Numbered from the stretch's first letter, positions 2,196 to 62,677 are shown. The stretch: DNA of 64,000 nucleotides from Amoebophrya sp. A120 (GCA_905178155.1 CAJINV010000002.1:4326108-4390107); one strand, 5' to 3'. The notes: generated from the letters alone by a model not told the origin. Numbers and translations: made by a program.

Positions 2196-5100
2196 ATGTC
2201 TATCTCTTCGACCATGCGCGGGCGAGCAATGGCTGTGACAGGAGCTGCTGCCCTCAAGAAACTCCCGACAAACTCCACGCTGGGTAGTAGTTGTAGTTCT
2301 TCTCTTCTTTACTTCCATCGCTTGCTGATGAGCCTTTTCCTCCTTCTTGGCACCACCAGCATCTTCCACAAAGCAGGAGAAGTAGACGCCGCGCTTTTCC
2401 GCCTCCGCCAGGTGAACCGGGAGGCGGCAGAGCTGTTCAAATCCAATGACGAGCAGTGCACTTTTTACCACAAGAACCATTTATTTGATGGCAGTCGTCT
2501 TCACAACATCAAGCAAAGACAACAGGTACACAGTTCTTGTCAAGTGCACAACGACCAAGATGACGCGATCGACGGTTTTGGCGGGTTGCGGGAGATGGTG
2601 GCGGCATTGCATCTGAGGGATGAGGTATCCAAAAAAAAAAAACTGTGTAAGTGTAAATTTGTGTTGCAGAACATGCAACAGAGTTACACCTGTCATGCCA
2701 GAGAGCCATGAAGTCCTCTTGTTCATGTGTGTTTTCCCTTACAAGCTACGCGTGACAGGTTTTCTCTGTCATGTAGAGCAAATTTGGGGTGCTATTTCTC
2801 AAAGAAAGTTACACTTACACAGTCTTTTTCTTGCATATGAGGCGGCGGAAGAGGTGGAAGCGAAAAGTTCTGGCTCTTGTGGCGCACCGCCAGCATCTTC
2901 ACATCAGAGTTGTTCTTTTTTCCCGTTAGTGGGAGCCGCGCATGATGCTCATCTTGAGTCCTCGTCGCACGTGGAAGAACTACAAGCGGGTGGAGTAGAA
3001 GTTCCTGATGCTGAGCGATCAGCTCAAGAAGTGGTGAAAGACGAGTTGCACTGCCATTCTTCTCCCAGAAGCTGCGCCGGCGGCGCGTTGATATCATCTT
3101 CATCTTCGTCCCCCTGTGCAACTGGTTTTAGAAGTGGTGGCACCACTCGTCATCTGTGGTCCTCCATGTCATTGTCATCCTCCCCCGTTGCCAGAGCCCA
3201 AAGCGGAAGCGGCCACGACTGCTCCTACAAACCCGGGTCCTGTGGTCTTTGCGCGTTGAGGAAATACACAGAAGAATTGCGGACGAGCAGGAAAAATAAG
3301 AAACAGCAACTCGACCAGAACTGGTGCTCCTGGGGTGGTACTTCCGCCACTACTGGGATTGACAAAGAGAAAGATGCTGATGAGACGAGACTGAAGCAAA
3401 GGCGTCACGCTCCACATGTTGCACACTTTGTAGGAGCGGCCTGCGCGGATGACGATGAAGATGTATTCTCGCAGCAACATCACAGGAAGCCTGGTGCAGC
3501 GGCAGCTCCACCAGTATCCGGCGCTCCCCTGGTTCCTTTCTTCTGCTACCTCGTGCAGAACAAGAAATACCTGCAGAACTACTCCCCGCAACGGATTTTT
3601 ATCGACAGAAAAAGACCTAAGTATCCTGATCCATTTTGCTTATTTTGCATGACAAACACAGTCGTTCACGCATGCACTGCATGACAAATTTGATGGGGAT
3701 CATGATGATGATCGTGGCTCTTTTTTTTGTGGATAATTTTGCAGACCTTCCTCCACGGCCTCCGCCCGTTAGAAGAACAGTACGAGTATTACCAAATGCC
3801 GGCAGAGCCGCAATTCCCGGCCGAAGATTTGTCCCGAGGGAGAGGCAGGGCGATAGCTGCAGCAACGGGTGGTGGTGGAACAAGAAGTCGCGCCGCTGGT
3901 ACAACTATGGCGCAGCGCATTTTCACGCCGTGGGCGGCGGGAGGGGTGACCGGGCACGCGCCTTACCATGGTGGGGTGAACAATGGGCAACAGGGGCGCG
4001 GAGGATATCAGAACACGGGTGAAATAGAGCATCACATATGCATTGATATGTGTCTGGGTCTGGAAAGAACTTTTGATGTGGCTTGGACAATCATGCGGAG
4101 GCATCAGTTTCTTGCCGCCAAGCATGACAAGTTTTTGAGGTCGTCCTCGTTGTTTGTTACCCACGACTCTGGATGTAAAATGCGATGTTTGCGCCTGACA
4201 AAAAAGTGGGGTGCTTGGGTAATAACCACGCGCAGGACAGAGGACTTGAGAGTTGTCATGCCAGACAAGCATGACAAACTTGCATTCTTGTTCCAGACCC
4301 AGACACATTTGCACTGGATATCACACGGTGAATAACAACTCTATGCTCCAGCAAATCATCTTCAACCCCGTCCTCTACTGGGTTATATCAAATGCAAATA
4401 TGTCTGGAGACTTGTGATGCTGTTTGGCGCATCTTCATGTGGACGCCTTCATTGACGGCCAAGCATGACAAGTTTTGGAGTTGCTACTGCATGACAAACT
4501 GCGTTTCTGCATGACAGGGGGTTCGTCTCAATGAAATGAAATGAAATGGCAGAGAAGTGCGGCTTTTGGGTGGCGTGCATGACAGACTTGAGAGCCATGC
4601 TAGCCGTGCATGACAGACCTTGCACTCTTCCAGATCCAGACCCAGACATATTTGCATTTGATAGGTTACCAGACACAGCAACTACAGCGCGGGTAGACGG
4701 GGGAGGGAGCAGGGGAGGAACGGACAGGTGGCTCCTACTTGGACGGGTGCAGGATTGAATACGGCGAATGGAGGTGCTGGTAGTACTAGAAGTAGAGGAG
4801 GCACGACAGCGAATGGAGGTCCGCGAACAAACGGGACGTCCACGTCGCACAACAGCCGCATAATTGCGAATAACGTGCGTAGTCACGCCGTGAGGACGAC
4901 GACCGGGTTTTTGTCGCCGAGAGGAAGTAGACAGGTTTCGTCCCCGCAGGGGCGATCCTCGTCCACCCAAGAAGTCGTCAGGCCGATTGACGCACTGGAC
5001 ACTACATTGTACTGGCAGGACGTGTGGCACTGGTTACATTCGCTCCCGAAGTGCAGTTCAACAAGAACATCTTGTGGTGGACGACGAATATTGAATCATG

Positions 5101-10157: not shown

Positions 10158-13100
10158 ATGGAGTCCGGGCGCATCTACGTCGACATCACGACGATTATTT
10201 TTCCGGTCTTCATGGGATGGAGCGCGGCGCTGTCGTTACTTTTTCCCGCCTTCTACAAAAAGTACTTCTGTTGCACTATGCGGAAACGGAAGGGCGATTC
10301 AGCATCTGATTCGCTGTACACAACGTCGTCATCCGGAATTATAAAAGCCTCATCGAAACAACAGAATAAAACTGGTACGAGAACAAAGAAGTCCGATAAT
10401 GAAAGATCCGAGTTGAACAAAGTAGCCGGGCCCTGCTCTACTACTTCGCCACATCAAGCAGACGCAGCAGTAGAGCCGGCGGCAGCGACGTCTGCAGAAC
10501 CCGTTGTAGAGCCGAATGCAGTTGAAGAGACTGGAGCTCCATTTCCACACGGAGCTGCTGTGAATACCACTGCTAGTTCATCTTCATCCTGCTGCTCCAC
10601 ACCTACTTCGTCTCGCGGAGGTTCTTCAGGCAGAAACACGATTTTTACTTCCTCACCGACTTCGGCATCGAAGCTGCTCTTGGAGGAGAAGACAGATATC
10701 ATGCAGCAGAACAAGGTAAACAACACGTCGGATAACGCTAGTAAAACCAAACAAGACGCTTCATTTTCATCAAAGCAAGGAGGATCGGCGAGTCGTTTAG
10801 AACACACAACAACTTCCTGGTTCAACATCATCTCTTCGGTCAACCTGAAGAAGTTCCTCACCGACTACTGCGATTCCATCAAGGTTCCCATCGACTTACC
10901 GCCGCTTATGGGGCTCTCAAACGTTACATTCTCAACTGTATAGGTACATGATTTGTCATGCAAAACCACTATCACTATTCACACGACCAAGCCTTCTTTG
11001 CATGACAACTTCTCGACGCGCTAAAGAGCACTATAATCCGTCCCAAATCTGTAATGCAGAAGGCGCAATCCTCCTCCTTTCACTTTTACCACTCTTGCAT
11101 TACAAATTCATGTAACAGTTGAGAGTGTAACGCTTGAGAACGCCATACCGCTCCCCATCACCGCGCAGCTGCCCGCGATCACTGTTTGGGTTTTGTTCTC
11201 CATCGCAGCAGAAGACGCGCTTTATATTGGGGTGTCGATTCCGATTGCCGTTGCGGGGGTGGTATCCTGTGCAAAAATATCGTACTCGTAGGAATCGCAG
11301 TCATGCAATACAAATCTAGTTATCACGGTCAATCCGCATTACAAATTGCATCTGTAATGCTGAGCCAGTTTGTAATGCAATTTCTACTAGTACGATACTT
11401 TTGCAATGCATAGGTGGTGAATTTAATGATTTACCCGCTGGTCTACGACCGGGACAGGTAAGTACTTATAGAGCTGCTTGTTCTCGAGGACCTTGATGAC
11501 CTTCTACTGCTTTATTGAGGAAACATAATTTAGCATGCTCTACTAGAAGTACTAGCCCCAAGATGAACTCAGTACCTGCGCCGTTTTCTCATCATTTCAT
11601 GCGCAAAAAACAAATGTTTATCTTCAGGTACTACCACCAGTTCCTCGCCCAGCTGGTAGTCGCGGTACTGATCATTTTTGCCTGCATTTTCTTTCTCGGG
11701 GTCGAAGATGCGGGTCTCTGCGCGACCTGGGCCAGCGTGCTCGGCGTCCCGTATTATACCTCCGCTTTGTTCGGGATGGCGACGGCGATTCGGGAAGGCA
11801 AGCCGGAAGCGTTGGGGTCGCTTACCATGAACTTCGCAGCGGTATGAAAGCCTCAGGTTGGAAATCCTCAAAGTATAATTTGTATGTAATGCAAAAAAAC
11901 GACTCCAGTTGAAGCGCAGTTTCAGTTTGTAGTCGGCGCATGACAAATTTCCCGGGCACTTAAAGCATGTCTGTCATGCAGATTAAGGCAAAGGGGTGTC
12001 CTTCTCTCGTGCTAAGCAGCACTCCAATTCTTCACCCCTAGCAGGACAATAGTCGGCCTCCATTGCATCCTCTGCAATGCAGTCTTTTTTGCGTCGCATT
12101 TCATGCATCACAAATTATTTCCACTTTGAGGATTTCCATTCTGAGGCTTTCATAAGCGGTGTGCGCGGCGGCCAGCTGGATGCTGCAGGGGTTGTTGGTG
12201 GCGAACGTGATCTATGAACTGCAAAAGTATCGTACTCGTATAAATGCATTCCAAATTTTCTCAGCACGAGAAAGAAAATTTGTAATGCTGATTTGCCTTG
12301 AGCTTGACGTAATGCAAGACCTGCATTTATACGAGTACGATATTTTTGCACAGCATATGATCGAGTTGTTCATCGGCTGTCTGTGCTACACGATAATCAA
12401 CGCTTGCGCACTAGTTTTGAACTTCTGTCTGCGGTCCGGGCCGGTGATTCAGACCATTTTGTCCAGTGGATCGGAAACGGAAAATATGGAAAATAATAAA
12501 ACTGCTGGAGGACTGCAAGAGCAAGAGAAGCGCAGCAGCGACGCTTCATCTACGTCAAATGAAGACAGGAACAAGGATCTCGACAAGGCCAAAGAGGTAG
12601 AGTTCACAAGCACGACAAGTTCCTCTCGGGATCATTACTTCAACAAAGTCGAATCTTCCTCTTCCTCCTCGCCGACGAAGGAGGGTACTGAAATTATGCT
12701 GTTGCGCAATGCAAGCACGACGAGCAATACAAGCACAGCCTTCTTCGAGGACCGGCCCAGTAACACGAGCACGCTGGCGTCGTCTGGTAGTGGCTATCAA
12801 ATGTAAAAATGTCTGGGTCTGGAAATTTGTGATGCTGGGTGGCGTCTCATGATGAGGCCACAAGTGCTGGCGCAGCATGACAAGTTTCTGAGCTCCTGGG
12901 TGTTGCCTATTCTGCATGACAAACTGCGCTTCTGCATCACAGAAAAACGGAGCTCTTGGGTAACGTGCATGACAGATTTAAAGAGTCATGCCAGACAAGC
13001 ATGACAAACATGCATTCTTCCAGACCCAGACACTTTTACATTTGATAGTGGCGGGTCAACGACGACTTTCCATGGCGCCGGTGGCGGTCCTCTCAGCAAT

Positions 13101-18600: not shown

Positions 18601-21600
18601 AAGACCTATTTGCATCAAACGCTAACAACTTCGGGGGCCTACAGCTTCTTACTCGTGAAAGTGAGAAGAGAAAAACATCCGAGCAGGACGAGCCGCGGAG
18701 CGTCAAGTTATTGCAGACTCAACAGACGTTTGGCCTTGGCCAACTAGAGCTACATGATCACGCGGAGGGGGAAGCTGCAGGGGTAGATGCGCTCATAATC
18801 GAGGAGGGAGGCACAGACGATCATGATGTCGATCCGACGACTCGTGCTTTTTTAGAGCAGCATGCCGCGCACTCGCACGGCTGGAGTAGAAGTGCTGCGG
18901 CCCAGCACTACACTAGCGAGGGAGAAGCGATGCCCCCGATGATGGGCGGTGGACCACCCGGACCTGCAAATAAAGGCTGGGGTGGAACTAGTACTACCCA
19001 TAAAAGCAGTATGGCAGCACAAAAAGGGTATTCCTATTCACTGAAACACGGTACTCGCGAGGGAGAAGCGATGCCCCCCGGACCCGCAAAGGGTGGAGGT
19101 TGGGGAACCACACATAAAGGCATGGCAGCACAAAAAGGGTATGCACCGAAGCACGGCACTAGCGAGGGAGAAGCGATACCCCCGATGGGCGGACCCGGTT
19201 GGGGACCTACTCCCTATAATAAAGGCATGGCAGGACAACCAGGAGGGTATAATGCTGCACCCATGACGGCGGATCCGTTTGGTAAGGTCGCCGCGAAGAA
19301 GGGAGGTGGTGGCCCGGGAAAAGGTGGTGGGAAAAAAGGGAAAGGGAAACAAGATCCCTCTGATATCCTGTGTGAAAACGACGTCCCCACGATGCCAGAG
19401 TCAAGATAGGGATTTTGCTACACAAACCAGCAGCTTTTGGCTGTCGCGCATGACAAGTTCGGGCTCGCAGTGTAATTGCGTTTAGCTATTACAGCTCGCT
19501 GCATCACAACTTAATCGCCCGATGCTGATTCTAGCATTACAAATTTCCAGATAGCATCAGAAAATGGAGGCTCTCATCGGGCTGTGCATGAAAGATGGTT
19601 TAGGCTTACAGATTTGCATGACAACTTTGCGAAACAGCGCAATCTTGCAGATTTTGCATGCTAAACAGCGCTCTCTTCTATGTTTTTGGCGTATGTGATT
19701 TATCCATAGATTAACATGAAAGCCGTGCTGCAGGGTCCAGTATCCTTGTTGCTGGTGTCCTGGTTGTGCTTTCTATATGTGTCGCGAGTAAGGATTGTTG
19801 GCGTTGTTGGCGAAAGTGTGAGGCAAAAAAGTTGGTATAGTTGGCGAGTTGGTATAGTGGCCGGGAGATGATGGTGATGGCACTTCGGTGCCCACCTGAC
19901 CTACCTTCCCTGCGTGACAGCCATCTGCGGCCGTTTGCAAAGGGGGAGGCAAAGTGTGCCGCACTTCTGTTTAGCATGACAATTTTGCGAAGGTGGGGAG
20001 GACGTTTTTACGCAGGATATCTGAGTGGTATGAACCAGACCACCACGACCACTATGGGAACAAAGTGAACATGTCCGAGACGTCCTCCGAGGTGGCCAGG
20101 AAGGAGCTGGACATGCACTTCTACCCCATCGTCTCGGTACTTTACCCGGTGGTTCAGATTTTCATGTTTTACGCCGTCGCAAACAAGACCGAGGATTCTT
20201 TACGGGACTACAATCTCAAGTACGGAATTCGGGCGTTCAAAAACCGGACCTGCTTCCTCACCGAGAAGCCCTTCGAATACAGTGGGTGTCCCTGGTTCGT
20301 CGACATCAGGAGTGAGGCGATCCGCTACGTCTCCTACGCATTTGCCCACACGGATACCGGGCACCTTTTGAACAACATCATTTTCGAACTCCTTTTTGTA
20401 TGCAGGAGTGCAAAAGCATCGTACTAGTATAAATCGCAATACAAATTGGCTCAGCATTACAAATTGAATTTGTAATGCGGATTTACCTTAACAAGTAGAT
20501 TTGTAATGCATGACTGCGATTACTACGAGTACGATACTTTTGCACAGGATATTTTGGCCCGAGTCTGGAAATGGTGCACGGCACCGCGCGCATGCTGCCC
20601 TTGGTGCTTTTGGCCATTCTCGGCGGCAGTCTCACCACGGCCGCGGATATCAACTGTAAAAATGTCTGGGTCTGGAAGAATTCATGTTTGTCATGCTTGT
20701 CTGGCATGATTCTTAAATCTGTCATGCACGTTACCCAAGAGGTGCGTTTTTCTGTGATGCAGAAGCGCAGTTTGTCATGCAGAATAGGCAACACCTAGGA
20801 GCTCAGAAATTTGTCATGCTGAGCCAGCATCTGTAGCCTCATCATGAGACGCCACCCAGCATCACAAGTTTCCAGACCCAGACATTTTTACATTTGATAG
20901 CGGAAGACCCAACGCAACTCGTGGTCGGGAGTTCCGGCTATGCCTACGGACTGGTGGCGATGCAGATCGCGAATCTCGCTATGAACTGGCACGAGTTATC
21001 AAATGCAAAAATGTCCGGGTCTGGAAGGTTGCGAGATTTGTCATGCTTTTCTGGCATGACCAAAAAGTTTGTGATGCGTGTCCAAGAAAAGACTTCTTCG
21101 CCACCTGTCATGCAAAAACGCAGTTTGTCATGCGAAAAACGCAACACGTACACAAAAAAGCGCAGATACTTATTTCTCATGCTTGGCTGTGTATTACAGA
21201 ACATTCATTATTCCCAACGCAGCATTACAAGTTTCCAGACCTTGACACTTTTGCAATCCATATGAGTATGACCACCGCTATTTCCACTTCAACCACGAAC
21301 AGACGCTGAAGATGCGGCAGTCCTACGTGTTTTTGGCCACTATTTTAACTTTCGTCCTCATGATGTCCTTTTCTACTGTGCAGTCGATGGACGGCGGCGG
21401 GGTGTCCCACTCCGCGCACATGGGCGGCGCCATCTGCGGGCTCTTGTTCGCAGCGCTGTTCTGTCGAAACGTGGTCAAGTATCCGAGTGCACAGCCTCCC
21501 CTCCCCCTCATTTGAAGGATATAAACAGCAACGCAAGCGCTGGCATACTCATACATGCAGCTTTTGCATGACAAGTTCGCGACCGACTCTGGTTCTGTTC

Positions 21601-45678: not shown

Positions 45679-48600
45679 ATGAAGTTTCTTAACGATGGCG
45701 ATGTGTCCTTTTTGGACCTCGAGAAGCTGATGTTTGAGGGCGGGGTGAAAAAGCCAGGCCATCTTATAACCCGCTCAGGTGTTACAATCTCAAACGTTAC
45801 AATAGAATATGGAAATCTGTGACGCAAGAGTGCATGATCTAGCCAGCCCTCATAGGATTGCGCATGACAAGTTCCGGAGCCCCGAACCCCACTACAATCT
45901 GGCAAAATTTGTATTGCAGAAAATGGAACGCGCTGCGATTCTGTCATGCTCGGCATGCAACACAAATTCCAGATTCTATGGTAACCGATTTGAGATTGCA
46001 ACACCTGAGCGGGTTATACATCTACAGAAGCGCCGCAAAGTCGAGATGAAATATCCTGTGCAAAAGTATCGTACTCGTATAAATGCATTACAAATTTCCT
46101 CAGCATGAGAAAGAAAATTTGTAATGCGAATTTACGATAAGAAAAAGATTTGTAATGCAAGACTTGCATTTATTATACGAGTGCGATACTTTTGCACAGG
46201 ATATGAAAATAAGTGGCACAACTCCGAAAAACTACAGCAACACGACGTCATCTTCAAAAGCTGCTACTGGGGCTGCAAGCAGCTCTTGTAACAAATTTCA
46301 GAACAACAATCTCGGGCTAAGCGAATTGCCCATCGGAAGTAGCAGCTGCAACAAGAGCAATGCGGAAAATAAGAGAAAATCGTCCTGTGCTCTTGATGGA
46401 CCTCCACAGGATGTGAATAAAACTGACGGCGCGCTCGAAGGCCAAGATGACGAGACTGCTCAAGGCAACCACCGGAAGAGCACCTCCGACCACCAGAAAG
46501 ACAACACTGTAACTTCCACGGCGGCGGGGACCCCCGCCTCCGATTTCTTCCTCCACCGCGAGCAAAATCGGAAGGTGTACGATCTGACCGACCCCAGCGC
46601 TTTGGTGCAGAAGGGGGAAAAGGTCGGGTGGCTTGCCGTGCGTGCGGACAAACGGGAGGAGTTGGAGACGGTGAGTAGAAAATTGTCCGCGACGAGCTCG
46701 TTTGATAACAAGGACAATGTTGAACAGCAACAAAGTCTTCACGTTTTTAACAAGAGCCAGTCTTTCGATCAGGAAGGAAACGTGAACCCCCACGGAGTAG
46801 TAACTACTGCTCCTCCTGCGCGAGCGTCTCTTGGTTCAACAGGATCCGAACAGCAGAACAATAATCGCCATGACGCGGCTAGTAGTACACCAGCAGCAGG
46901 AGCTTCTAGCACATCGGATAAAAATCACGATCTCGGCTGCCAAAACGTGGACGATTTGTCTCCGACCAGCCGATATGAATTCATTGCAAAAATGTCCATG
47001 TCGTACTAGTCCATTAATCGCAAGCATGCAAGACAAATCTCGTTCCTAAGGTAAATCAGCACGACAAGTTTTTTCATTCGTAAAAATGGTGAGCAAATTT
47101 GTATTGCAAAAATCACTACTAGCACGATGATACTTTTGCAATTCATAGCTGTGCGGTGTACGAACAGCGGAAAAAGACCGAGGAGAACATGGAGCTCACG
47201 GCCGTCGTCTCCAACGTGCACCGCCACGCGACGCGGGACGTATCCTGGGTAAAAACATCCCCACCCCATAGTTGTCATGCTGATTTGCGATTACAGGAAA
47301 ATCTGTAATGCGCATCTCTAAGGCGGGCATTTGTTCCAATCGCGTTCTGGAATTTGTAATGCTGCAAACAGGATAAGCAGATGGATTTGTGATGCGGTTG
47401 TCCCTGCTAACATGCACGACTACACTGCGGACTGCAACTTTTCATGCGTGGCTCCTAAAACTTCTGGATCTGTATTGCTAAGTTCCCAACTTGACTATGG
47501 GAAGATGGGGACGTTTTTACATATGATAGGACGAGGTCCGGAATTATTTCACGGAGAAATGCGGCAAGGTTGCCGACATCCGGTTCGTGCCCGGACGGGG
47601 CATGTTTTCCATCGCGTGTATCCAGTTTGAAGACCGCCAGGGAATTGAAAAAGCGATCCACGGCTTGGCGGATCCGATGATTAAGGGCTATCGTGTGACC
47701 ATCAAATCCTCGGTCCAAATCCGGCAGGACTTGCAGAAGGGGAAAACGCGGGCAGAGGTGCTGGAGAAGATCAATTTCCAAAATCCGGTGAAATCCATGT
47801 TGGAAGGCCCGAACGACCCGAATATCGCCGCGCGGAACCGGGGCTTCGGGATTTACAACGATACCATTTCCTTCGAGGAAAAACGAAAATGGGAGCAACA
47901 GCGGTCCTGGCAAGAGGCCTACTGTTACAAACAAGAGTATATGAAGTGCAAATACGTCTGGGTCTAGAAAAGTGGAACTTGTAATGCGTGTCTTGCATTC
48001 CTGGACAATCTGTGTTGCATGAGCAGCAAAAGAGGAGCTTCCTTTGTCATGCAAAAACGCGATTTGTAATGCGTATTAGGCATCAACAGGCGTCTTAAAA
48101 ACTTGTCATGCTTGACTGCCATTGCAAGCGCTTCAATCATGCGCAACTCAGCATCACAAGTTTCCAGACCCAGACATATTTGCATTTGATAGAGTACAGC
48201 TCGAATCCGGGCCTGAAGCCGATCGGTGTCAATCCCCCGCCGCCGCCGGTTTATTCAGTGCAAATATGTCTGGGTCTGGAAGGATGCAATTTGTGATGCT
48301 GGATTTGGATTCTAGAATAAATCTGTATTGCATGAACAGCGAAAGAGGTGGTCCAAGCTTTGCCATGGCGAGAGGACATTTCTGATGCGCTATAGGCATC
48401 AGGAAGCTCTCCTAAAATCTGTGATGCTAGGGCATCTATCAGAGACAACAGGACTCATGTAAAATGTGCATGACAATAAACCTTGCATTCTTCCAGACCC
48501 AGACATCGTTGCATTTGATACGGCTCTTGGAACGTCGACGATGAAAAACCACAGTGACAAAAAATCCGAGACGGATGGTATCGTAAGGAAAAATGCCCCC

Positions 48601-51600
48601 ACCCCCGAACTTGGGAGCATTTGTATTGCAAACCTTTCCAAACGAAACATTCGCCCTCTTGCATCTATCAGCATGACAAATTTCCCATTCTGAATAGCGC
48701 AAATTTGTGATGCAAAGGAGCCCAACAGCAGGCGGATCCCTGATGCAAAAGATACCTTGCGCCCCTAGATTCTGCGTCAGAAATGCTTGCGCTCCTTTCA
48801 TGCAAGACAAAAGCCTCTCATTTGGAAACTTTGCATGAGAAACTTTTGCAAATTCGGGGCTGGGGGCACTTTTCATTGTAATAGATGGTGAGGGGAATGA
48901 AACTGTCGCCACTTTAGCGGAGAAGGAAAGACTGAAAAATTTGACCAACCTATCCTGAGCAAAAACCTACCCACACCAGAGTTGTATATGCAAATCAGCA
49001 TGCTGAAAATGTTTCTCATGCGGAGACCCATGAGAAGCATTTTCTAGTGGTGTTGTGAGCTTTGTGATGCCAGAATCCGCATGATATGCTAGATCTGTGA
49101 TGCTGCTGAACTACCTAAACCGGATTACACTACGAGGACACACTTGTCATGCGAAGCAACCAAAGCTGGTTGATTTGTCTAGCAGATTTGCCATCTTGAC
49201 TCTGGTGTGGGTACGTTTTTACTGAGGATACAACCGGATCCGCATCACCAACCTCCCGGCGAATTTCGACAATAAAAACAAGCACAAATGTATCCAAGAA
49301 AAAAACTGTGTAAGTGTAACTTTGTAGGAAGAGCAGCATCACAAATTCGTTTTGCAATACAGGGAAAAGAACCTGTCATGCGCAGCTAGTACGCGAAAAC
49401 ACGTACGAAAGTAGCCTATGACGCAGATCCAGCATGACAAGCGCAACAGTTTTGCATTTCCTGCATCACAGACTTGTTACACTCACATAGTTTTTGTCTT
49501 GCATAAAATGTCTCTTAGAGTGGTTCCAACGGTTTGGGGAAATGGAATCCGTCGTGGATAAAACCGTGAAAGAGCACAAATTTCAAGATTTACTCGAGAT
49601 CACCTTCAAAACGGTTCAGGCCGCAACCGACGCGACCGAGTGCATGAACGGCTTCGAGTATTTTGGGGAAATGTTGAAGGTGATGCAAGCGCACAAGGTC
49701 CCCTTAGTCCCCCCGCCAGGGGTGGTCATTGGGGAAGACGGGGGCGAGACAAACACGAACCGCGGGAGTTGCCAGTTTGGAACTTCTACTACTACTTCCA
49801 CGACGGGAGCAGGGGGGAGTAGTGGTACTGGTGCGAGTGTTGAAGTCGTTGGACCTCCACAAGTAGCATCTACTTTGTCAGCTGCACATCTACACACAAC
49901 CGGCGGACCGATGAGCAATCCTCTGCTCGCAGGCGGCATTGGCGGGAATCCAATACTAAATGCAAGTTCGAAGCACACCGCACCGCCGCCGGCTGGTGGA
50001 GCACCAGGATCGACATCACAAGGTGGGACCGCGGGCGGTGCGCCTCGTGTATACAACAACCCGGTAACCGGTTCGGTTGCACAACCGTACGTCAACAATC
50101 CGCACAACCTTATCAAAAAATGCAAATATGTCTGGGTCTGAAACGATGCAAGGTCTGCCACGCACATTTTGCATGACTGCTGACGTCTGTGATGCATGCA
50201 CTAGCAGCACAGATTTTGTGGGGGCTTTCTGATGCGGATACAGCATGAGAAAAACTGGACGACCTGTTTTGGTTTTGCTGTTCATGCAATACAGATTTTT
50301 GCAGTATCCAGATACAGCAACAGCAACACAAGTTACATCCTTCCAGACCCAGCAGACACATATTTGCAATGCATAAACCTCCCAACAGTCCAATATGTCA
50401 ACGGGCGTCCGGTCTACAATAACAACGGTCGGCCCGTTCACGCAAGCTCCGGCGCGGTCACGGGGTTACACCAATTTCGTCCGCCGGTTCCCCTGTATAA
50501 CTCGGCCGCTGGGAGGGCGAATGCGCATGGAGGTAGCAGCAATAGCACTTCGACTTCTCATCTCGGACAACAACAGCAAGAACTTGGAGGGACTTCTAAA
50601 ACAACCGGCAATCATCATGCGCCGCAGACCTACGGGCAACTGAACCCCAATGCTAGTAATGCTCCGCCACGCGGTGGGGTTGGGGTTCCTGGTCGGAATC
50701 CGGGTGTTGGTTTCGGGATGTTGAACAATTCTGATCAACAACAACATCAGCACCACGCGGCCAACAACAACTTCAGACTGCCGGGCCAGGGACCGTGGAC
50801 GGGCGAGGGTATGCACAGTAGTTTCCGATGAATCTGTCGAGCGATAATCAAATATCCGTGGTTGTGTCTTGGTGTACAACATCTGTGCTTGTTTTCTACT
50901 TGCACTGATTTTTACACTATGCCGAGTTTCGAACGAATATCTTTGTTTAGTGCATGAAGTTGAAGTAGATGTGCGACTGGTGTGCTACTCCGGTGGTGCT
51001 CCCACTTCGAAATTGGTTCACTTTTCCTACAAGTGGCCTTTGTTCCTAGTTGCATTTGCTGTCATCTTCTAGTTCTTGACAAGGATTCTTGTTCTTTCTA
51101 GGCAACAGGTACTTCTGTGCAACATGGAGGTTGTTTTTTTTCTATCTCATGGTCGTGTGCAGCTAAACCTGGAGCACTTCTACACTCGACGGATTTGTTG
51201 GAGACTTGCATGAAAGCGGGGGGAATCTACTGTGGCTGGCATCTATGAAATGCAAAAGTATCGTACTCGTATAAATACATTACAAATTATTTCCTCAGCA
51301 TGAGAAATAAAATTTTGTAATGCGGATTTACCTTAAAAAAAAGATTTGTAATGCATGACTGCAATAATACGAGTGCGATACTTTTGCACAGGATAGCATC
51401 AGCATGGTGCTGGCGGAGGTTCTTCTCGCTTCAACCCGAAAGGTGTTTTCGGATATTACGGAGGTGCTGGTGGTCCGCTCAGGAGCTGTAGTAAGGGCGG
51501 CGCGTCAGCGTCGGATCCGGATGCTTGTCATCAACATCATCATCCGTATGATCGCAGCCCCTATCACAATAACTTCGGGCGACTAGGAATGAATGCGAAT

Positions 51601-52093
51601 GATCTACTTCCTGCCGGAAAAGGACCATTAGGAGGACAACAACAAACCGAGATCAACATGACGTCTAAGCGCAAGAACAACTTCCATTTGAACTGTAGCG
51701 GTTTATGCATTGCAAAAGTATCGTACTCGTATAAATGCATATACAAATTATTTCCGCAGCATGAGAAATGAAATTTGTAATGCGGAATTACCTTGAGAAC
51801 AGGATTTGTAATGCATGACTGCAGTACGAGTACGATACTTTTGCACAGGATACGGCTTCCGACCCGCGGATGATTGGGACCTCTTGCGGCATATCCTGTG
51901 CAAAAGTATCGCACTCGTAGTAATTATTGCAATTATGCATGATAAATCTTTTTCTCAAGGTAAATCAGCATGAGAAATTTCATTTGTAATGCTGAGCAAA
52001 TTTGTCATGCAATTTATTATATATACTAGTACGATACTTTTGCACTCCATACGGCAGCGGAAAGGTGGAGTCTTGCGCTACGAAGATCGTTGA
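45679..52093 (+). CDS. RNA-binding protein with two RRM domains and Gly/Pro/Asn-rich tail
   Basis: RRM1 TAVVSNVHRHATRDEVRNYFTEKCGKVADIRFV...IACIQFED; RRM2 RIRITNLPANFD...WFQRFGEMESV...MNGFEYFGEMLKV. Frame verified to 50831. Extension to TGA 52091-52093 is inferred from 3 further frame-preserving introners and a probable GT intron at 50809 whose acceptor is uncertain. Confidence 0.7.
45765..46018. mobile_element. Introner family F-related, long near-perfect TIR
   Basis: TATAACCCGCTCAGGTGTTACAATCTCAAA / TTTGAGATTGCAACACCTGAGCGGGTTATA; DR CATCT. Confidence 0.9.
46052..46203. mobile_element. Introner family B
   Basis: Family B TIR; DR TGAAA. Confidence 0.9.
46974..47147. mobile_element. Introner family B (diverged)
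   Basis: Degenerate B TIR; DR GCCGA/GCTGT; frame restored into RRM1. Confidence 0.7.
47241..47528. mobile_element. Introner family J
   Basis: GTAAAAACATCCCCA / TGGGGACGTTTTTAC TIR; DR GGACG. Confidence 0.9.
47940..48191. mobile_element. Introner family A
   Basis: Family A TIR; DR GAGTA. Confidence 0.9.
48252..48520. mobile_element. Introner family A
   Basis: Family A TIR; DR CGGTT/CGGCT. Confidence 0.85.
48579..48883. mobile_element. Introner family H
   Basis: Family H TIR; DR GATGG. Confidence 0.9.
48951..49230. mobile_element. Introner family J
   Basis: AAAAACCTACCCACACCAGAGT / ACTCTGGTGTGGGTACGTTTTT; DR CAACC. Confidence 0.9.
49291..49505. mobile_element. Introner family C
   Basis: Family C TIR; DR AAATG. 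Confidence 0.9.
50111..50375. mobile_element. Introner family A
   Basis: Family A TIR; DR AACCT. Confidence 0.9.
51244..51395. mobile_element. Introner family B
   Basis: Family B TIR; DR GCATC. Confidence 0.9.
51704..51852. mobile_element. Introner family B
   Basis: Family B TIR; DR CGGTT/CGGCT. Confidence 0.85.
51892..52051. mobile_element. Introner family B
   Basis: Family B TIR; DR CGGCA. Confidence 0.9.
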
Positions 52094-53143
52094 TCATAAT
52101 TCTCTCCACTAGGTGCAGCTAGAGGTAGTCGTAGCAGCTGCCGAGATGTTGACCACAGTAGAATTTGAATTTACGAAGATGAAAATCCGTAGTCGTGGTC
52201 CTGGAGCAGGAAAATTATCAGGAACGGAAGATAGAAGAAGAAGAAGAACAAAAAATACCGGCCGCCGTAGATAAGTTTCACGTACAACGATCAAGGCATC
52301 TCTTCTGGACGTACACGTACCTAGTAGAGGTTTACTGATACTGTTTCACCAGTACCCTGAAGCTGAATCTGGAAAAATTCTTGTTGCGCCACAGGATAGT
52401 TCGTCTTCGCTTGGCCTAGGAATAAAGGCAGGAACACTTCTACAATTACAACGTACAGAAAATGATGAAAGGTTGAGAAAATTTTTTTAGTGATGATACT
52501 GAAGTGCAATTTTCTGGCTTCTCCCCTGGCGCTGGAAAATGTTCGATATCGATATTTTCATTTCAAAGTTGTGCAAACGCACCAAAAACCCTCCTATCAC
52601 ATCAACCCATGCATCGTCACCAGAAAAAAGGTCGCACCAAACTCCGAACAAAAACAAGCTACAGCTCGCCATTATTTTTTTTCGTGGGCGTTTTCCTGTT
52701 GAGGCTGTGGTCCTCAGCCACCGACCCACAGACACAGTGTTGCATCTCGTTCTGAATCTGATATCAACCTGGCGTTTTCCATCTGATCGAATACGAATTT
52801 GATCCTAATGTAATTAGGGCGCGACTGATAAATGTGTCTTCTTTTTGCGATCGTTCTTCGTTTTCCATCTTCGCTTTGTTCGTCGAATATCGTCATGCAG
52901 CTCTGTTCTTCTGTTCTTCGTATTGAAAAGTCAGTGTTGGTGTCCACCTTGTCTCTCTCAGCGATCGACTTTTAGTACTAGAGCGACAATCTTGATACAA
53001 TCTTCATCTTGATTGACTTGAGGACAAGGACAAGCGGCGCTTTGTTCTTTTGTTCGTAGAAGCTCAAGTTTGAGTTTTACTTTCACATTACATCCACATT
53101 TTCTCTCGGCACGGGCACACAGACCGATCCGCTACTCAGCAAG

Positions 53144-56100
53144 ATGGGAGCCGCAACTGCGCTTCTCGACAAGGTCGCTGACGTTTTCTTCAAATTTTTT
53201 TTCCAAACCATTCCGGCGTTTTTCCGCAAGATTTCCTCTTACGAAGGAACGACCCGGCCCTTCACCGTGGAGTTTCTCTTATGAAAGTGCACAACTCCCC
53301 CTCCCCTCGTTTGTCATGCAAAATTCCCAATCCAACATATATTGCCTCTTGGCACTGTTTACATGACAAGTTCTTGTAGCCCAAATAGCACTACACTCGA
53401 GTGCAAATTTGTCATGCAAAACCGGCATAATTCTTTTTCTTGCTGATGCTTGTTGTACTATTGCCGTTCATCTTCATGCTATACAAATGCGATGGAGGGG
53501 GAGTTCTTGCGCACTCTCATATCTCTCTGAAACCAACCACAAGCTGAACGATATCAAGTTCAAAAACGATTTACCAATCAAGGCCCCGGAGTACGACAAG
53601 TCCGAGCTGGGGATCTGGAAAAACAAGCGCGGCCAGAAAATCTTCACGAGAACGATCCACCCGAAGGGGGTACTAAGAGGTTCTAGTACAACAAACACTT
53701 CTACTGCAAGAAGTGACGGCACCACCCTGACTTCTGCATCAGCACCGAAAGTTGTAGACCCCGAGCCGAACTGCTCTCAACATTTGATCTTTTTTCACCA
53801 CGTATGGAATGCAAAAGTATTGTGCTGTCGTATAAATGCATCACAAATTTCCTCAGCATGAGAAATAAAATTTGTAATGCTGATTCAGCTTAAGAACAAG
53901 ACTTGTAATGCATGATTGCAATACGAGTATCAGATGCAGCTTTTGCACAGGGTACCACGGCATCCTCGGACATTGCTCGCAGGCCTTGAAAAACCAGCAG
54001 GGAAATTGCTTGGGGTTATTGTCCCTTGCGCACTATCCTCTGCAAAAGTATCGTACTCGTAGTAATCGCAGTCATGCATTACAAATCTCGATCCCAAGGC
54101 AAAACAGCATGACAAACTCCATTTCTCATGCTGAGTGAATTTGTCATGCGATTTCTACTAGTACGATACTTTTGCAATGCATACGTACGACTTTGCGGAG
54201 AGCGGGTATTCCTGCTTTCTCTACGATGCGGTGGCACATTATGGTGGTGTCAGCATTGAAATCGACAAAGTTCTTGAAATAGCTTGCAATGCATAAAATC
54301 GATACCAGTCGGAAGCCCAATTTTCAAACGGCGCATGACAAATTTCGGCGCCGTTGAAATCAAGTCTGTCATGCTGTTTAGGGACAGAGCGCGTCTTTTG
54401 TCATGCTACTAGAGCAGCTCTATTGCAGACCCCAAACAGGCTCACAATCGGTCTCGCTTGCAATCCCTGCAAGACAGTCACTTCGTGCCTTGCATTTTAT
54501 GCATCACAGATTATTTCAACGTTGTCGATTTCAATCCTGACACACCCACACACATGGGTATTCTGCCGGCTATTTCGCGGACAACACGGACGATCGGGAA
54601 AAACACTACCTGCCGAAGTTCGAAGTATCGCAAGAAAAAAGTGTTACAGTACACTACACATTGTGTTGCAGGAGCCGCAAGACAGACGACCTTTGTCATG
54701 CAGGAAATGCTTGCGAGCCTCGCTTGTTCCTACGTAATATTTTCCTTTATGATCTTTGCATTACAAGCTTTGGCTTTCTCTGCCACGCAGAGAAAATTTG
54801 TGATGCAGCAACTCCAAGAACAAATGTGTAACTGTAACACTTTTTTCTCTACTGCATACGAACACTGTATCGACGACTACGAGGAGTATGTGAAATACTG
54901 TATGAAAAAATACGCAAAGAAAACAACGACGAAAACGAAATTTTTCCTGTACGGAGAGTCCTGGGGCGGCGCGTGCGCACTTCAGCTGGGGATAAGGTAT
55001 GGAAGTGCAAATAAATTTGGTACATACGTAGTTGTTTTAGGTTTATATATTGCTGGGATGGTACAGCTGAGCTTCGCTGTCATCCCGGTCATTTACTCCT
55101 TCTACAGACAGTAATTCTTTCTTTTTGTGATGCACCAGAAATCCAATCTGAAAGTGAAATAGAAATAAATCAAATACCTCTATCAGACTTCAAGAAAAGT
55201 CCCACCCGCTGCATGCCCAGTTCGGCGGCGCCATTCTGAATGCGCCGATGATTCACTTCTCCATGCCGATCCTCCCCATCAAACTGTTTCTCCGCCACGT
55301 CGCCGCGCCCCTGTTCCCGTATGCAGTGCAAAAGTATCTTCGTACTCGTACAAATGCATCACAAATTTCCTCAGCATGAGAAATGGAATTTGTCATGCTG
55401 ATTTGCCTTGGCAACAAGATTTGTAATGCAAGACTTGCATTTATACGAAACGCGTACGATACTTTTGCACAGGATATCCCGACGTGGCGACCAATCTTTA
55501 TGCCCCACAACACCTCTATCAAATGTAAAATGTCTGGGTCTGGAAGATTGCCAGGCTTGTCATGCACATTTTGCATGACTCCTGATGTCTGAGTCTGTGA
55601 TGCATGCCCTAGCATCACAGATTTTGTGAGGGCTTCCCAATGCCTATACCGCATGACAAATGCTCTTTCCGTGTAGCAAAGCTTGGACTTTCTTTGCTGC
55701 TCATGCAATACAGACTTTTTTTGGAATCCACAATCAGCATGACAAGTTGAATTCTTCCAGACCCAGACATTTTTACATATCCACGTAGTTCTCTTCTCTT
55801 TTCTTTCTTCAAAATGTTAAAGTCGTTCTCTTCCCTGTGCAGACAAAACACCAGACATTTTTACATTTGATAACCTCGGTCGACAAGCTGTCCAAAGACC
55901 CCGCGATCCAGCTGCAGGTGACGGAAAAAAACGCCTATGGTGGGGAAAACAATCCGCTGCGGTTAGGGACCGCGTTGCAAATGGTGAGGCAAGTGGAAGT
56001 ATCCTGTGCAGAAGTATCGCACTCGTAGTAATCTTCGCAATTATGCATTACAAATCTATCTTGTTAAGGTAAATCCGCATTACAAATTTAATTTGTAGTG

Positions 56101-56915: not shown

Positions 56916-59445
56916 TAATGTAATGGTGGAAATTAGTTGTACAACGCGAACGCGTTGTCAAGAGCTCCAGCTGCTGCACTCGTAAAGTTGTGGACCGCCT
57001 CTACTATAGCAGTATGTGCGGAGGTCAAGTTTCCCCTTAGCTTTTGAAAACATTCGCCGGACGAGCAGCTGCAGCTCTTACAGCCCCGAGCACGCTCTCG
57101 CTCCACCACCGTCCGTAGGCGAGCCGAGCCGACAGCTCTGAGCTCAGCTGCTCGGATCGCGTGCGAAGAGGACAACATGTTCTTGTGATGAAAAAAAAAT
57201 AATGAAATATTGAACACTTCTGCCGGGTATCCATCATTTCTGTCTAGTCCGTATATCGTTGTGTGCTGTAGTCCTGGAGCCGGTCCGATCTCTTTGCTGT
57301 GCATGTCCCGATGACGTAAAGAGCATTTCGATCGGTTTGTTCTACCGTACCCGCATTTGGTGAAAAAGTCGGTCTTTCGTCATCTGTACACAGTATCTTC
57401 AAAATAAGTTGTCAAGAAGGATGAAAACGATGTTTGATCGGTGGTCTTTAGTATTCGCGTTAGTGCCATAAGCTGAATTTCCTCGGTTGCTTTTTCGTGT
57501 AATCGGAATACCATGCGTGTGAAATTCACTTTATTTTGATTTATATACTTCGTGCTAGTCGTCTGCCTCTCATCCTCGGTGTTGGTGGTCGCTCTCGTTT
57601 GATCGAATGTGTTTTTCCTCTTCGGTTAGAACAACCGCGTTTTTGACGTCGGTTTTTGTTTCAGGGAAAACTATATATCGTCCGGTGGTGTGTGATGTTA
57701 CTCAGGGTAGTACCGTGCTGTAGGAGGACGACGTCTTCCTCTTCGTAAACGTCCCTCATGACTTTTTCCTTTTCGTACAACAACAAAGAGGACTGCGTGA
57801 CGTTCCTCGATACTGGGCATTGCTCCTAAAAGAAACTACTGACGCGCCCGACGAGACCACGATGATCGTTTTTATTTGCCTAAACGAAATATTGAACGAC
57901 TCCCCCTTCTTCGACAGGTTATTTTTCTTGAGACTTGTTGGTCGTCCCCACGTCTGCAACAAGTCCTAGAAGGACACAAAAGTAGAGCATTTACTTCACG
58001 ACCTCGACGCTTTGAACAACAAATTGCAAACTTTTCGGAAATATTTTTATACTTTTATACAAAACTTTTGAACTACTACCGGTCAACATCTTCTTATTTT
58101 ACGAACAAACAAAAAATTCCTATAAATACTACGTCAGTTATGTGGAACAAGTAGAACCTACTGCTCAACAGTAGTGTTGTTACTTCCTCAGAAGTACAAC
58201 TAGCAGGCGAGTGTAGTTTCTACAATAATATACTATGTCACTTCTTCCAGATCTTCCACGCGAAGCCGAAGCCACTATTGCCACTTCTGCAAGCTGTGGA
58301 GGTTGAAGCATTTGCACGACTGCGTCCTGGACCGGGGAAGGTATAGAGTTAGAAGCTTGATGCTGTATGATGTAGTAGGAACGGCTTTTGGTTTTGTGTG
58401 ATGGTGTGAAGACATGTTGTCACATGGAAATAAACGCACAACCGGGGTAGACCGGGTCTAGAAATTTCTCTAGGCATTTTTTTCGCTTAGCAGGTAGCTT
58501 CTTAAGAGAAGCTTCTGAGAGGGGCTTTTAAGTGCCGCCCATCTGAATTCAGATGCGCGCCGGGGCACGCGCCCGCCTGAATTCAGCTGAAGACAGCGAA
58601 AAGACTCCACTGCAGGTGGGCCGAGGGCTGGGCAAGGCCCAAGGGTGCGTCCGCCTACTTTTAGGTAGACGCGCGCCGGGCCAGCCATCCGCAATGCTCC
58701 CAGCGCAGACGCCGGGCCAATCTTCCTCAATTGAGCCGCACGGCGGTCCCAGCGTCTAAATGCAAGGGGGCGCCGGGACAAGTCCGATAGGATTTATGTT
58801 CACGTCGGGCCAGGTCCGCTTGCATTCACGCGGGCGCCGACTTGAATGTAGCCACCTTCCACAGGAGGGGACTTAGAAAGGCAAGACCTCTCCTGAGAGA
58901 GAAAGCCTCGATCTCTTTCGCAGAAATGCAACTTTATTGCGCCTTGGCCTCTACTTTCACTTTCTCGGGAGCAGTGGCTCCTAGCCTCTACGCCCTAGCC
59001 TTGGCTCCCACAGGAGGGGGTGTAAAAGGTCCAAACTGCTCCCGAGAAAGAAATCCGCAAGATGCGTTGCAGAAAGTAAGGGGCCTTGTGCTTGGGCGGC
59101 TTCGTTTTTCCTCTGGAGCGGCCTCCATTGCGTAGTTTATTTGGATGAAGATGCTTCTGAGTTTACTAGACGCCCCATCGCCGGCGTCCTGGACGCCGGC
59201 GTGGTAGTCTCGTAGTAATTACTAAATTTGATTTGTTCCAGATCTTCCACGCGAAGCCACCACCCCGACCACCTCCAAGGAACATGGCTTTCACTCGGCG
59301 CACTCCTAACGCAGCTCGTCACCGGCCCGCAGGTCGTCGTCCCAGCATGATCACCACAAGCACAAACTCTACACGTCGTAGAGGCGCTGGCGCCGCCTCG
59401 CCGAGGACGTCTAGCTGTCCGAGGTACAAGAGGAGAAGCAGAACT

Positions 59446-60657
59446 ATGCGCCGCCGCTTATCGTGCGTAAAAATGTCCTCACGACCCAAGAGTCAAGTAG
59501 ACAGGGACTTTGCAACACGACAAGAAAGCCAAAAGTTTTGGGAGCCACGCATGACAAGTTTGGCGCTGCAGTGTAGAAGTTGTGCCTAGATATTCCAGAC
59601 GCATGACAAATGCGCCCCGTAGTTGTCCTGATTAGTGCATGACAGAATACCAAGCGCCAACATTTTGTACAGAATGCCGTTTATTGAGAACCGCGCGTGT
59701 GAAGTAAACACGCAATTTGGCACGACGTCACCAGCTTATCGGGGTCGTGGGGACGTCTTTGCATAGGATATCGATTACCTCCTATATCAACTGTAAAAAT
59801 GTCTGGGTCTGGAAGGGTGTAGACTTGTAATGCAGGTTTTCCATGACCCATGGCCATGAGGTCCGGAATGCGGGACTTCGCATGACAGACTCTGTGAGGT
59901 CTCTGCCATGCCTATCCTGCATGAGAAACTTCCTCCCAACTTGGTCGAAAGTGGACAGCTTTTGGGAATTATGCAACACAGATCTTTGCATGATTGAGAT
60001 TTAGCATGACAAGTTGGAATCTTCCAGACCCAGGCATTTTTGCATTTGATATCCTACGGGGAAGAACAAGTTCCTGCTTGCTGCAACCAGCGTCTATCCT
60101 GTGCAAAAGTATCGCACTCGTAGTAATTGCAGTCATACACTACAAATCCTTTCGCTAAGGTAAATCAGCATTACAAATTTTATTTCTCATGCTGAGGAAA
60201 TTTGTAATGCATTTATACGAGTGCGATACTTTTGCAATGCACAGCGTCCTGCGCATCGCGATATCAACATACACGACCAGCACTCTAGTGGTATCGCCGG
60301 CCCCTCTATCCACAGAAAAAAAACCCATCCCCATCCATTTTTCGCATGACAGGCACAGAAATTTATACGTGTTTTGCATGACAAATTGGATGTGGATGGG
60401 TGTTTTTTCCTGGATGCCCTCCTCTCGTCAGTGCCGTGAACGTGGAAAAAATCAACGCGCAGCAGCAATCACAGCAGCAGAGGAGCACAACTGGAAGCGC
60501 CAACGGAAGCCGCAAGACAAACGCAGCGCCAGCTGCCCAGCCGAACATGGGAGACAAGATGAACGAGGATAATTGCAGTGGCTCCTGTGGCAGTATGAAA
60601 AAGAAAACTTCAACTTCAAGCTTCTTACAACTACACTACGAAGATGCCGAAATTTAA
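59446..60657 (+). CDS. Small putative secreted protein (~117 aa)
   Basis: MRRRLPPTGKNKFLLAATSVLRIAISTYTTSTLVVSPAPPLVSAVNVEK...SSFLQLHYEDAEI, assembled across 4 introners (354 nt). The start could be the upstream in-frame ATG at 59284. Confidence 0.55.
59459..59770. mobile_element. Introner family J
   Basis: Family J TIR, left arm similar to 19364; DR CCGCT/TCGAT. Confidence 0.8.
59785..60051. mobile_element. Introner family A
   Basis: Family A TIR; DR TCCTA. Confidence 0.9.
60095..60243. mobile_element. Introner family B
   Basis: Family B TIR; DR GCGTC. Confidence 0.9.
60307..60416. mobile_element. Introner family E (shortest, 110 bp)
   Basis: AAAAAACCCATCC / GGATGGGTGTTTTTT TIR; DR CCCTC. 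Confidence 0.85.
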
Positions 60658-60690
60658 TTGCAGCTGCTCTTCTTTTGTTGTCCTCTTCGC

Positions 60691-62677
60691 ATGACGTCGA
60701 CGAGGAGCACGAGAGTCGTGTTCCTGTTGGTATGCGTAGGTGAACAGCAGATCATGGAAATGAAGGAAGTCGAAGTTTCTTCCCCTTGCATAGAATGCGG
60801 CAAGAACACCAGTGGAGATGAGAAGCAGAAACTACCAGTGCAAAAACCAGCAGCGGCCGTCATCGGTCGGTTTTACAACCCACACGAAGGACCTGAGGAA
60901 GTCGAAGGCACTGCTGCTGCTGCAGCCGGACCACACCTGGCCCCCAGTGGTGCTGACCCCGCGGCCGCGCTATGCCTTGCAAATGTTTCTAGGTCTAGTT
61001 GAAGGGAGGTCCCAACTTGCCCCGCACGTTCTCGTGGATGACGGAAAATAAACTTCTTATGTTGCATGCGCCCCAAAACCAAAAGTAAAAGAAAATACGC
61101 AAGTTTCTTGCTACGCCAATACGGAACCTGTCATGTTGCCAGACAGGCATCGCGACCGTGAGGCGTGTGCTACACCTGTAAATACAGCGCATTTGTGTGC
61201 ATAATTCCAGACCACCATCTGCATGACAACTGAAAAGAAGATCTTCATGTGTGACAAACAGGGCGGGAACCCTTCCAGAGCCAAACGTATTTGCAGTCGA
61301 TAGTACGCGCCGCTGCATCAAGCTTCTTCACCCGTAGTTGCACAGCGGTCCGCTGCAACAGAGGATCCTCTTCAGGCTGCTGCTGCTGCAAGCGGGGACC
61401 CCGCGGCCGGAGCGGCAGGAAGGCGGCCAGGCCCGGGCGACCAGGACCACCACGAGGAACAACTACAACTAGCAGGAGGGGCTCCGGTGCGTACCTCCCC
61501 ACCGCCGGCCGCGGCTTCATCTGCCGGCGCCGGACCAAGTGATGGCACTGGGCTGCCACTAGTTGTAAAAAAAGAGCTAAGCAGCACACATCAACTGCCT
61601 CAACGTCAACTTCGCGAGGAACCAGGAAAGAAAGGTCTTCCGCACGATAGTGATATAGATAAAGCAGGCCATGGTGTTAAAGGTGCGCAAAAAAAAGAAG
61701 ACAAGCCAGCGGCTAAAGTACTTCATCTACATGGCGAGAACATGGATAGTGGACCCACTTCGGACAAGGATCATGAGGATCAACAAAATCCGCCATCAGC
61801 AGCTTCCAAAAACGGGGACAAGACATCATCTACAACTGCTCCTGCTAGTAATCATGCCACGCCGCCTTCTGCTCTTGGAGGCGCCCCCACTCCCGTGGAT
61901 TCTTCGAGCGCAACACATCCGGCGCAGCCCGCTGCTGGCGCAGCCCTCTCTGCATGTCTTGACATGCTGGCCAAGCCCAAGACAGATCGTGGCGGCGGCA
62001 AGTTGCGCAGCAAGAAAACGATACCCTCGAAAAGAAACAAAGGGGAGGACGCGGAGTACGAAGGCGAGGTGAACGTCGAGGACGGCCGGCCACACGGGGA
62101 GGGCAAGCTGACGTGGCCGAACGGGGATTTTTTTTGGAGGATGGAGTACGAAGGGCAGTTCCAAGGAGGTTCCATGGATGGCTGCGGCAAGATGGTGTAT
62201 GGGAATGTGCCGATGTGCCTCCCTTCCGTCAGAGCCGAGCCACCCCGATTAGGGACGTATGAAGGGCAGTGGAAGAACGACAAGAGAGAAGGCGAGGGCG
62301 TGCACACGTATCCGGACGGGGCGACTTACAGGGGGCAGTGGTACTTAGACCTCCAACACGGAGAGGGCGAGTACACGTGGCCGGGCGGGTCGGAAAGTTA
62401 CAAGGGGGAGTATAAGGACGGCAAGCCTCATGGCCGTGGCTTGTACACGTGGCCGACCGGGGATACGTATGAGGGGCAGTGGGAGCACAACCAGCGTCAC
62501 GGCGAGGGCGTGCACACGTGGCCGGACCGGACGAGCTGGCACGGGGAGTTTAAGGAAGATCGGGTAGACGCCAGCATCAAAGGCAAGTGCATCCCGCAGG
62601 GCGACAGCGGCCTGGCTGTGGATGGCAAAAGCTTCGCGGAATGCGCCCCGAAGCCGACAAACACAAACTTATGCTAA
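60691..62677 (+). CDS. MORN-repeat protein (~548 aa)
   Basis: Repeats of YEGQW...REGEGVHTYPDGATYRGQW...QHGEGEYTWPGG in ORF 61487-62677, joined to the upstream exon across one introner; start uncertain (60691 or 60754). Confidence 0.85.
60971..61305. mobile_element. Introner, diverged family A-like
   Basis: Degenerate TGCAAAT..GAAGGG / CCCTTC..ATTTGCA; DR CGCGC; frame restored. Confidence 0.7.

Follow-up and report, generated by a model that had tools for sequence, protein, structure and literature searches.

The question raised by this locus is why families of introners whose bodies are mostly unlike one another carry the same short sequence in their interiors. The DNA under study (the window) is a stretch of 64,000 nt attributed to Amoebophrya sp. 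A120 (GCA_905178155.1, CAJINV010000002.1:4326108-4390107). A sequence-only reading of this stretch had reported the motif GCAT(G/C/T)ACA(A/G) as common to all introner families at positions 2626–61305, and had proposed that it is a binding site for a trans-acting factor. The results given here support a shared and conserved motif. With moderate confidence, it is considered a putative binding site on double-stranded DNA for a protein on which copying of the elements depends, similar to the subterminal sites of transposases.

Introner elements of the window

The window contains 68 short elements with terminal inverted repeats (TIRs) at positions 2626–61302, with no strand assigned to them. They are 110–956 bp in length, 16,256 bp in total, and have TAT…ATA ends and 5-bp target duplications. 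Elements were called from inverted ends and a 5-bp direct repeat and then from an end profile, which gave 54 elements without use of the motif; 14 were added by hand from unpaired ends near leftover motif matches. The duplication is exact in 49 of the 68 elements, an exact duplication having been a requirement for calling the first 40, and agrees at four of five positions in another 15; readings of 4 and 6 bp fail. TAT begins 127 of the 136 ends, an A-run (AAA at positions 10–16) is present in 111, and TA…TA termini are found at 130. There is little target preference. As short TIR units that have a target duplication and no coding capacity, these sequences are like the non-autonomous MITEs (miniature inverted-repeat transposable elements).

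An ion-channel exon (positions 28927–30183) matches protein P0004 of Amoebophrya sp. A120 at 100%, and the gene model is identical to P0004 over all 549 amino acids, across three elements. By this identity the window is eukaryotic and from A120. The host genes of the 68 elements are all on the + strand. Every predicted gene of the whole window is on this strand, like the co-oriented gene blocks reported for Amoebophrya.

Occurrence of the internal motif

There are 206 exact matches to GCAT[G/C/T]ACA[A/G] on the two strands of the window (95 on + and 111 on -), compared with 4.3 expected from shuffles. The 68 elements hold 192 of them (11.8 per kb), compared with 1.7 in shuffled interiors, and the 54 elements called blind to the motif hold 161. 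At least one exact match is present in 65 of the 68 elements and at least two weight-matrix sites in all of them. Predicted exons have none in 26,676 bp, intergenic DNA has 5 in 18,354 bp, and predicted GT-AG introns have 9 in 2,714 bp. The multiple copies in introners and the rarity in exons and intergenic DNA are as first described from the sequence; a restriction to introners is not borne out, as the motif is also in predicted GT-AG introns and in an intergenic cluster. This cluster (positions 23507–23770, no strand) has four of the five intergenic matches and a weak similarity to three element profiles (E 0.01–0.03), and is perhaps a decayed element. The full site, GCA(T>A)(G/C/T)A(C>G)A(A/G)(A/G)T, with a conserved part of about 10 bp, is wider than the word originally noted. 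It may resemble the apicomplexan ApiAP2 word TGCATGCA.

The motif was also analyzed in a replication set of at least 163 loci selected by the end pattern without the motif. They all belong to a single assembly (contig prefix JACKZZ01), which may be A120 itself or another strain. The blind caller found 323 elements in these loci and made one false call in 442 kb of shuffled sequence. The exact motif is present in 308 of the 321 elements of up to 700 bp, and its density is 11.0 per kb in elements versus 0.09 in long open reading frames (ORFs). Viral contigs had no matches to two element-end patterns; the paired motif pattern matched 85 viral loci, none of which fits a family profile, and these were taken as chance.

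Conservation and spacing of the motif

The family letters A–K of the sequence-only reading could not be mapped, and families were rebuilt. The 383 elements of up to 400 bp form 13 families of 4–111 copies (350 copies, with 33 left over). To call the families otherwise unrelated was an overstatement: TAT ends and the A-run are shared, and full-length alignment is possible for three pairs of consensuses (64–70%) and partial alignment for others. When the sites and 16 terminal bases are masked, only the pairs f0-f1, f5-f10 and f4-f10 retain clear similarity; judged by these alignments, most body sequence other than the sites cannot be aligned, and this part of the description holds. The shared ends and duplication length point to families that belong to one transposition system.

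Within families the motif changes more slowly than its surroundings; divergence at the rate of adjacent bases, which would have refuted the sequence-only reading, is not seen. Core positions 1, 2, 3, 6 and 8 deviate from the family consensus in 0–11% of cases, compared with 10–30% for other interior columns, and this is found in 13 of 13 families. Deviations at positions 1 to 10 are 5, 2, 5, 10, 27, 10, 14, 3, 13 and 18%, and those of the flanks are 19–31%. Position 5 is as variable as the flanks (27%), yet it changes among G, C and T 495 times and to A only 37 times.

The sites also have a characteristic spacing. Same-strand pairs 31–33 bp apart number 21, in 12 of the 13 family consensuses, compared with 2.2 expected, and their spacers are unlike. 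In 5,000 random placements the maximum is 9 such pairs, and the best 3-bp window at any spacing gives 12. In the window, 48 of the 68 elements have a same-strand pair at 31–33 bp. Sites that point outward cluster at 40–41, 48–52, 62–63, 70–73 and 79–85 bp from the element end, with a period of 10.5–11 bp from the end (R 0.53–0.55, n = 34; nominal p ~1e-4, with sites that are non-independent). Three helical turns is the spacing that a protein on one face of double-stranded DNA would impose, and we infer that the 31–33 bp spacing reflects a protein bound to one face of the helix.

The proposal of a trans-acting factor is in agreement with a motif that is enriched, conserved, helically phased and, as described below, filtered in copying. 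Of the candidates first proposed, it fits a transposase or a host chromatin protein, which would bind DNA, and not a splicing factor on single-stranded RNA. The suggestion that the motif is the "true recognition code" of the system goes too far: the families also have TAT…ATA ends, the A-run and the 5-bp duplication in common, all of them conserved, and no site is present in about two thirds of the predicted GT-AG introns.

Loss and retention of the motif during copying

Trees of nine families place 359 core changes on tip branches and 77 on internal branches, compared with 2870 and 1464 for other columns. In the four largest families the tip/internal odds ratio is 2.53. Simulations that used the same column rates on every branch, with trees re-inferred, give 1.09 +/- 0.11, with a maximum of 1.36 among 40 simulations. 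The trees show that core damage arises in single copies but that damaged copies seldom leave daughters. Older copies, recognized by a mismatched duplication (95 of 443), differ by +1.0% in the core (-0.1 to 2.2) and +1.4% in other columns (-0.4 to 3.2), which is weakly consistent with a neutral decay of the core after insertion.

The motif in GT-AG introns

Outside elements there are 14 exact matches in the window, nine of which fall in 7 of the 11 predicted GT-AG introns. These introns rest on reading frames alone, except for the protein-backed intron at positions 28739–28926; the ends of 4 of the 11 are a few bases off, and two gene models retain internal stops. The protein-backed intron (+ strand) is without inverted ends and has one exact site (28831). 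Its junction agrees with annotated P0004 and aligns gap-free to the relative P0001. The six others, all predicted on the + strand, are 33133–33331 (approximate ends, one exact antisense site at 33163), 33510–33663 (two exact antisense sites, 33554 and 33593), 34153–34300, 42742–42891 (one exact site, 42853), 43611–43759 (one exact site, 43693) and 54997–55186 (one exact site, 55125). In the intron at 34153–34300 two same-strand sites are 33 bp apart (34203/34236) and the remains of an inverted repeat are present; it is likely a converted introner.

The loci have 183 GT-AG introns that are roughly predicted and without element similarity, and in these the motif ranks first of all 7-mers and is one of the two leading 8-mers. 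Together these introns have 26 exact matches versus 1.9 expected, 13 sense and 13 antisense, spread over 19 introns. In a stricter set the site is found in 15 of 47 predicted introns versus 1.6 expected. Pairs at 32–33 bp recur outside elements (5 of 14 close pairs). The position of the site is not fixed relative to the splice sites. The site is not required for canonical splicing, since about two thirds of predicted GT-AG introns do not have it. Many of the predicted introns of the window and loci are 110–220 nt long, and the stretch that precedes their final CAG is rich in A and not in pyrimidines.

The presence of the site in ordinary introns suggests another explanation, which we consider unlikely. 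A host DNA or chromatin protein would read the paired, phased site in intron DNA and mark the intron for co-transcriptional splicing in place of recognition based on U1, and the transposons would have captured this site and so made their insertions spliceable. This would account for the high rank of the motif in introns with no strand preference, for the sites in the stricter introns, for the 32–33 bp pairs outside elements and for the lack of an excess of core mismatches, unlike what neutral relics would display; it is also consistent with U1 having not been detected in A25 or A120 in the text of Farhat et al. (PMC7789003). It does not readily explain the majority of introns without a site or the variable site position, and at least one site-bearing intron looks like a converted element. 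The near-neutral core loss in single copies, together with daughters that keep the core, is the signature of selection on copying. If a host mark were nevertheless the correct reading, the same protein would move the elements, and introns free to insert would later mature into GT-AG introns with the mark kept.

Several observations weigh against a site that functions only in copying. In neutral relics of an age at which the ends are lost, one-mismatch sites would be expected to outnumber perfect ones. The ten window introns without inverted ends have 9 exact sites versus 0.2 expected and only 1 one-mismatch site (positions 2, 3, 6 and 8) versus 1.4 expected, a comparison in which three ends were shifted by one base and a 903-bp intron without matches was dropped. 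In AT-rich non-element DNA, perfect sites are 27 versus 4, and mismatches at the same four positions are 36 versus 41. Because intact sites persist without an excess of one-mismatch sites, something in the host seems to keep them in introns, and mobility alone cannot maintain them. Core change on tip branches is only 41% of the neutral expectation, which leaves room for host selection. The sites occupy the whole element and not the ends alone. The spacing counts are non-independent because the families are partly related, and two families have a nominal orientation bias, 19:7 and 4:14 (p ~0.03 before correction for 13 tests). A Pfam scan of 105 ORFs (100 of 350 locus ORFs and 5 window ORFs) found no transposase or integrase family, and Farhat et al. 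2021, in the parts of the paper used here, found no transposase in A120 (PMC7789003).

Removal of the elements from transcripts

Excision of an element with one copy of its duplication restores + strand reading frames of 2.4–4.7 kb. A contig of 4,289 nt from sequencing run X1, a run only guessed to be RNA, spans positions 45381–52649 (+ strand) and lacks 13 elements, each skip being equal to the element length plus 5; the 13 joints checked are those listed, and the contig has 16 further joints that are unlisted. The X1 joints and the P0004 gene model show removal at non-canonical boundaries within short direct repeats, as is characteristic of A120 introners. Raw RNA runs X9–X11 matched pieces of elements only, with no exons, and are uninformative. 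The elements fold strongly (z -2.5 to -9), and the terminal hairpin would likely be the main guide of splicing, with the element and one duplication removed.

That the motif acts in RNA, by binding a splicing factor or by forming the arms of internal stems, could be suggested by this strong folding and by inverted copies that pair together in the 150-bp family, but it is very improbable. Relative to the gene strand, 254 motifs are sense and 294 antisense, and 23 elements are sense-only and 27 antisense-only (gene strand callable for 168 of 390 elements, plus uncalled window elements taken as +). A splicing factor on single-stranded RNA is disfavored because both transcript strands carry the motif and because such one-sided elements exist. 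The elements at 47241–47528, with all six sites antisense, and 48951–49230, with all five antisense (neither assigned a strand), are each skipped with one duplication in the X1 contig, and removal of all-sense elements restores the frame. Neighboring inverted motif pairs are identical in only 3 of 34 cases, the 110-bp family has no inverted partner, and the 31–33 bp period suits a DNA helix. It is also very improbable that the motif has no function and was left behind by common ancestry or by internal duplication and gene conversion. Common descent is real, as several families align at 64–70%, but the core is conserved in 13 of 13 families with a middle position that varies freely, the spacers are fixed in length and unlike in sequence, and core changes differ from those of other columns in their distribution over tip and internal branches.

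Relation to known systems

The elements are already known; the internal motif is real and, on the sequence evidence, functional. The introners described for A120 have ends with TAT, seven variable bases and an A-run, junction direct repeats, non-canonical boundaries and a length of about 240 nt (PMC7789003, in the part used here). These are from the same organism by protein identity and have the same end pattern and junction repeats as the window elements. The same part of the paper gives 1,954 families and rejects a general mobilization by transposase; an internal motif, a rule of spacing and a uniform duplication of 5 bp are not described in it. In the tables of Gozashti et al. 2025 (PMC12130899), most A120 families are "TIR DNA, Unknown" among 38 of 58 A120 table rows. 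Their family 38 ("Ginger") has a 5-bp target-site duplication, TA/TA termini, a length of about 808 bp and Copia-integrase-like ORFs. Its end dinucleotides and duplication length, compared by description only, are those of nearly all window elements, and it is the best candidate for the source of the enzyme.

Two other groups were considered and rejected. IS3EU and GingerRoot elements, as described in the parts of PMC10045372 and PMC6839031 used here, have TA…TA termini, TIRs and little target preference, as do the window elements, but a usual 6-bp duplication and no internal repeated site in those descriptions. The window elements were not placed there, as their duplication is 5 bp throughout and not 6. 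Ginger2/TDD (TG…CA termini, 4–5 bp duplication) fits in duplication length, but the TA…TA termini do not agree.

Short internal repeats in both orientations with unrelated filler are found in Ac/Ds, with AAACGG (PMC3260210), and in Lemi1/Emigrant (PMC1636448). These papers report that Ds1 and Ac have only ends and hexamers in common and that the Emigrant MITE has subterminal motifs to which Lemi1 proteins bind. The window elements are similar in having conserved copies in both orientations that are kept through copying. They differ in that the internal site is constant among families whose ends diverge after about the first 15 bp, in the three-turn pairs, in being spliced as introns and in the survival of the site in ordinary introns.

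The internal motif is undescribed in the Amoebophrya introner literature searched; figures, bioRxiv supplements and subscription papers were outside this scope. The motif word is absent from the main and supplement text of Farhat et al. (PMC7789003) and from 12 of 14 supplement files of Gozashti et al. (PMC12130899), and the parts of PMC11282704, PMC12166617 and the Roy preprint (10.1101/2020.10.14.339549) covered by the search have nothing on it. Among the papers listed for the word itself, all are unrelated.

The preferred explanation, a DNA site needed for copying, can be formulated as follows. The families would be non-autonomous and MITE-like and would belong to a single DNA-transposon system that has TA…TA ends and makes 5-bp duplications; their bodies may drift and recombine freely while ends and sites stay. 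A dimer or two-domain protein could bind one face of the helix at 40–41, 48–52 or 62–63 bp from the ends, and may help to pair the element ends for cutting and insertion. This protein is probably either the elements' unfound integrase-like transposase or a host helper, with about even chances that it is encoded by the elements or by the host. The filter on copying and the sites in introns would both be accounted for by a host protein that the elements use or by a transposase that has been domesticated.

Individual elements and other features

The 253-bp element at positions 12795–13047 has the duplication GTGGC (no strand assigned to this or the following elements). It was said to contain about seven motif copies; six are exact (one on -, five on +) and one is partial (12985). 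Same-strand pairs are at 12934/12967 (33 bp) and 12967/12999 (32 bp). The element at 20648–20899 is of the same family in the opposite orientation, in a + strand gene, and has five - sites and one + site. The minimal element of 110 bp at 60307–60416 contains two long inverted ends and, as first noted, two exact sites, which form one same-strand pair (60344/60376, 32 bp) with no inverted partner site; its fold arises from the ends. An example of the family of about 150 bp, at 46052–46203, has two + and two - sites and a pair at 31 bp.

The possibility that the terminal repeat consists of TAT and a degenerate motif copy was rejected. Counted over single copies it looked promising (37 of 136 ends), but counted over families it did not (2 of 26 ends), and offset 4 is no better than 5 or 6.

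Some elements are altered. The element at 24711–24937 has a right end mostly stripped of the inverted repeat, with the terminal TATCAA and an exact duplication kept, and its removal still restores the frame. The element at 55517–55872 appears to have another right end in its interior, near 55780, as from rearrangement or doubling of the terminus. A GC-rich, internally repetitive insert of about 815 bp without inverted ends is located inside an introner at 40120–40932 and in locus L023 at 772–1579. The two inserts are 90% identical, though the host introners are of different families; each insert adjoins a motif-like site and has a short hairpin at its end. In locus L032 (632–1465) an introner has an insert of about 600 bp, whose terminal (ATC)n run may be the tail of a non-LTR (long terminal repeat) retrotransposon.

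Elsewhere in the window, GC-rich blocks (up to 71%) that look non-coding are at 30800–32000, 34950–35900 and 58500–59200, the last inside a predicted GT-AG intron. The three blocks had no match in the fetched loci, and two ORFs scanned had no Pfam match. A tandem repeat with a unit of about 30 bp at 63820–64000 runs past the window end. Rfam gave no matches in the window at gathering score. Locus L020 (2628–6083) has a gene for a C-5 cytosine DNA methylase that is divided between two ORFs.

Significance

A120 has tens of thousands of non-canonical transposon-introns with U1 small nuclear RNA and transposase undetected, and the mechanisms of both mobility and splicing are at stake. With one conserved site and a spacing rule, many "families" become likely one system. 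The motif represents a precise bait, with precise mutants, for finding the protein. Survival of the site in ordinary introns may be a marker of the change from introner to canonical intron, or a hint that introns are marked at the level of DNA.

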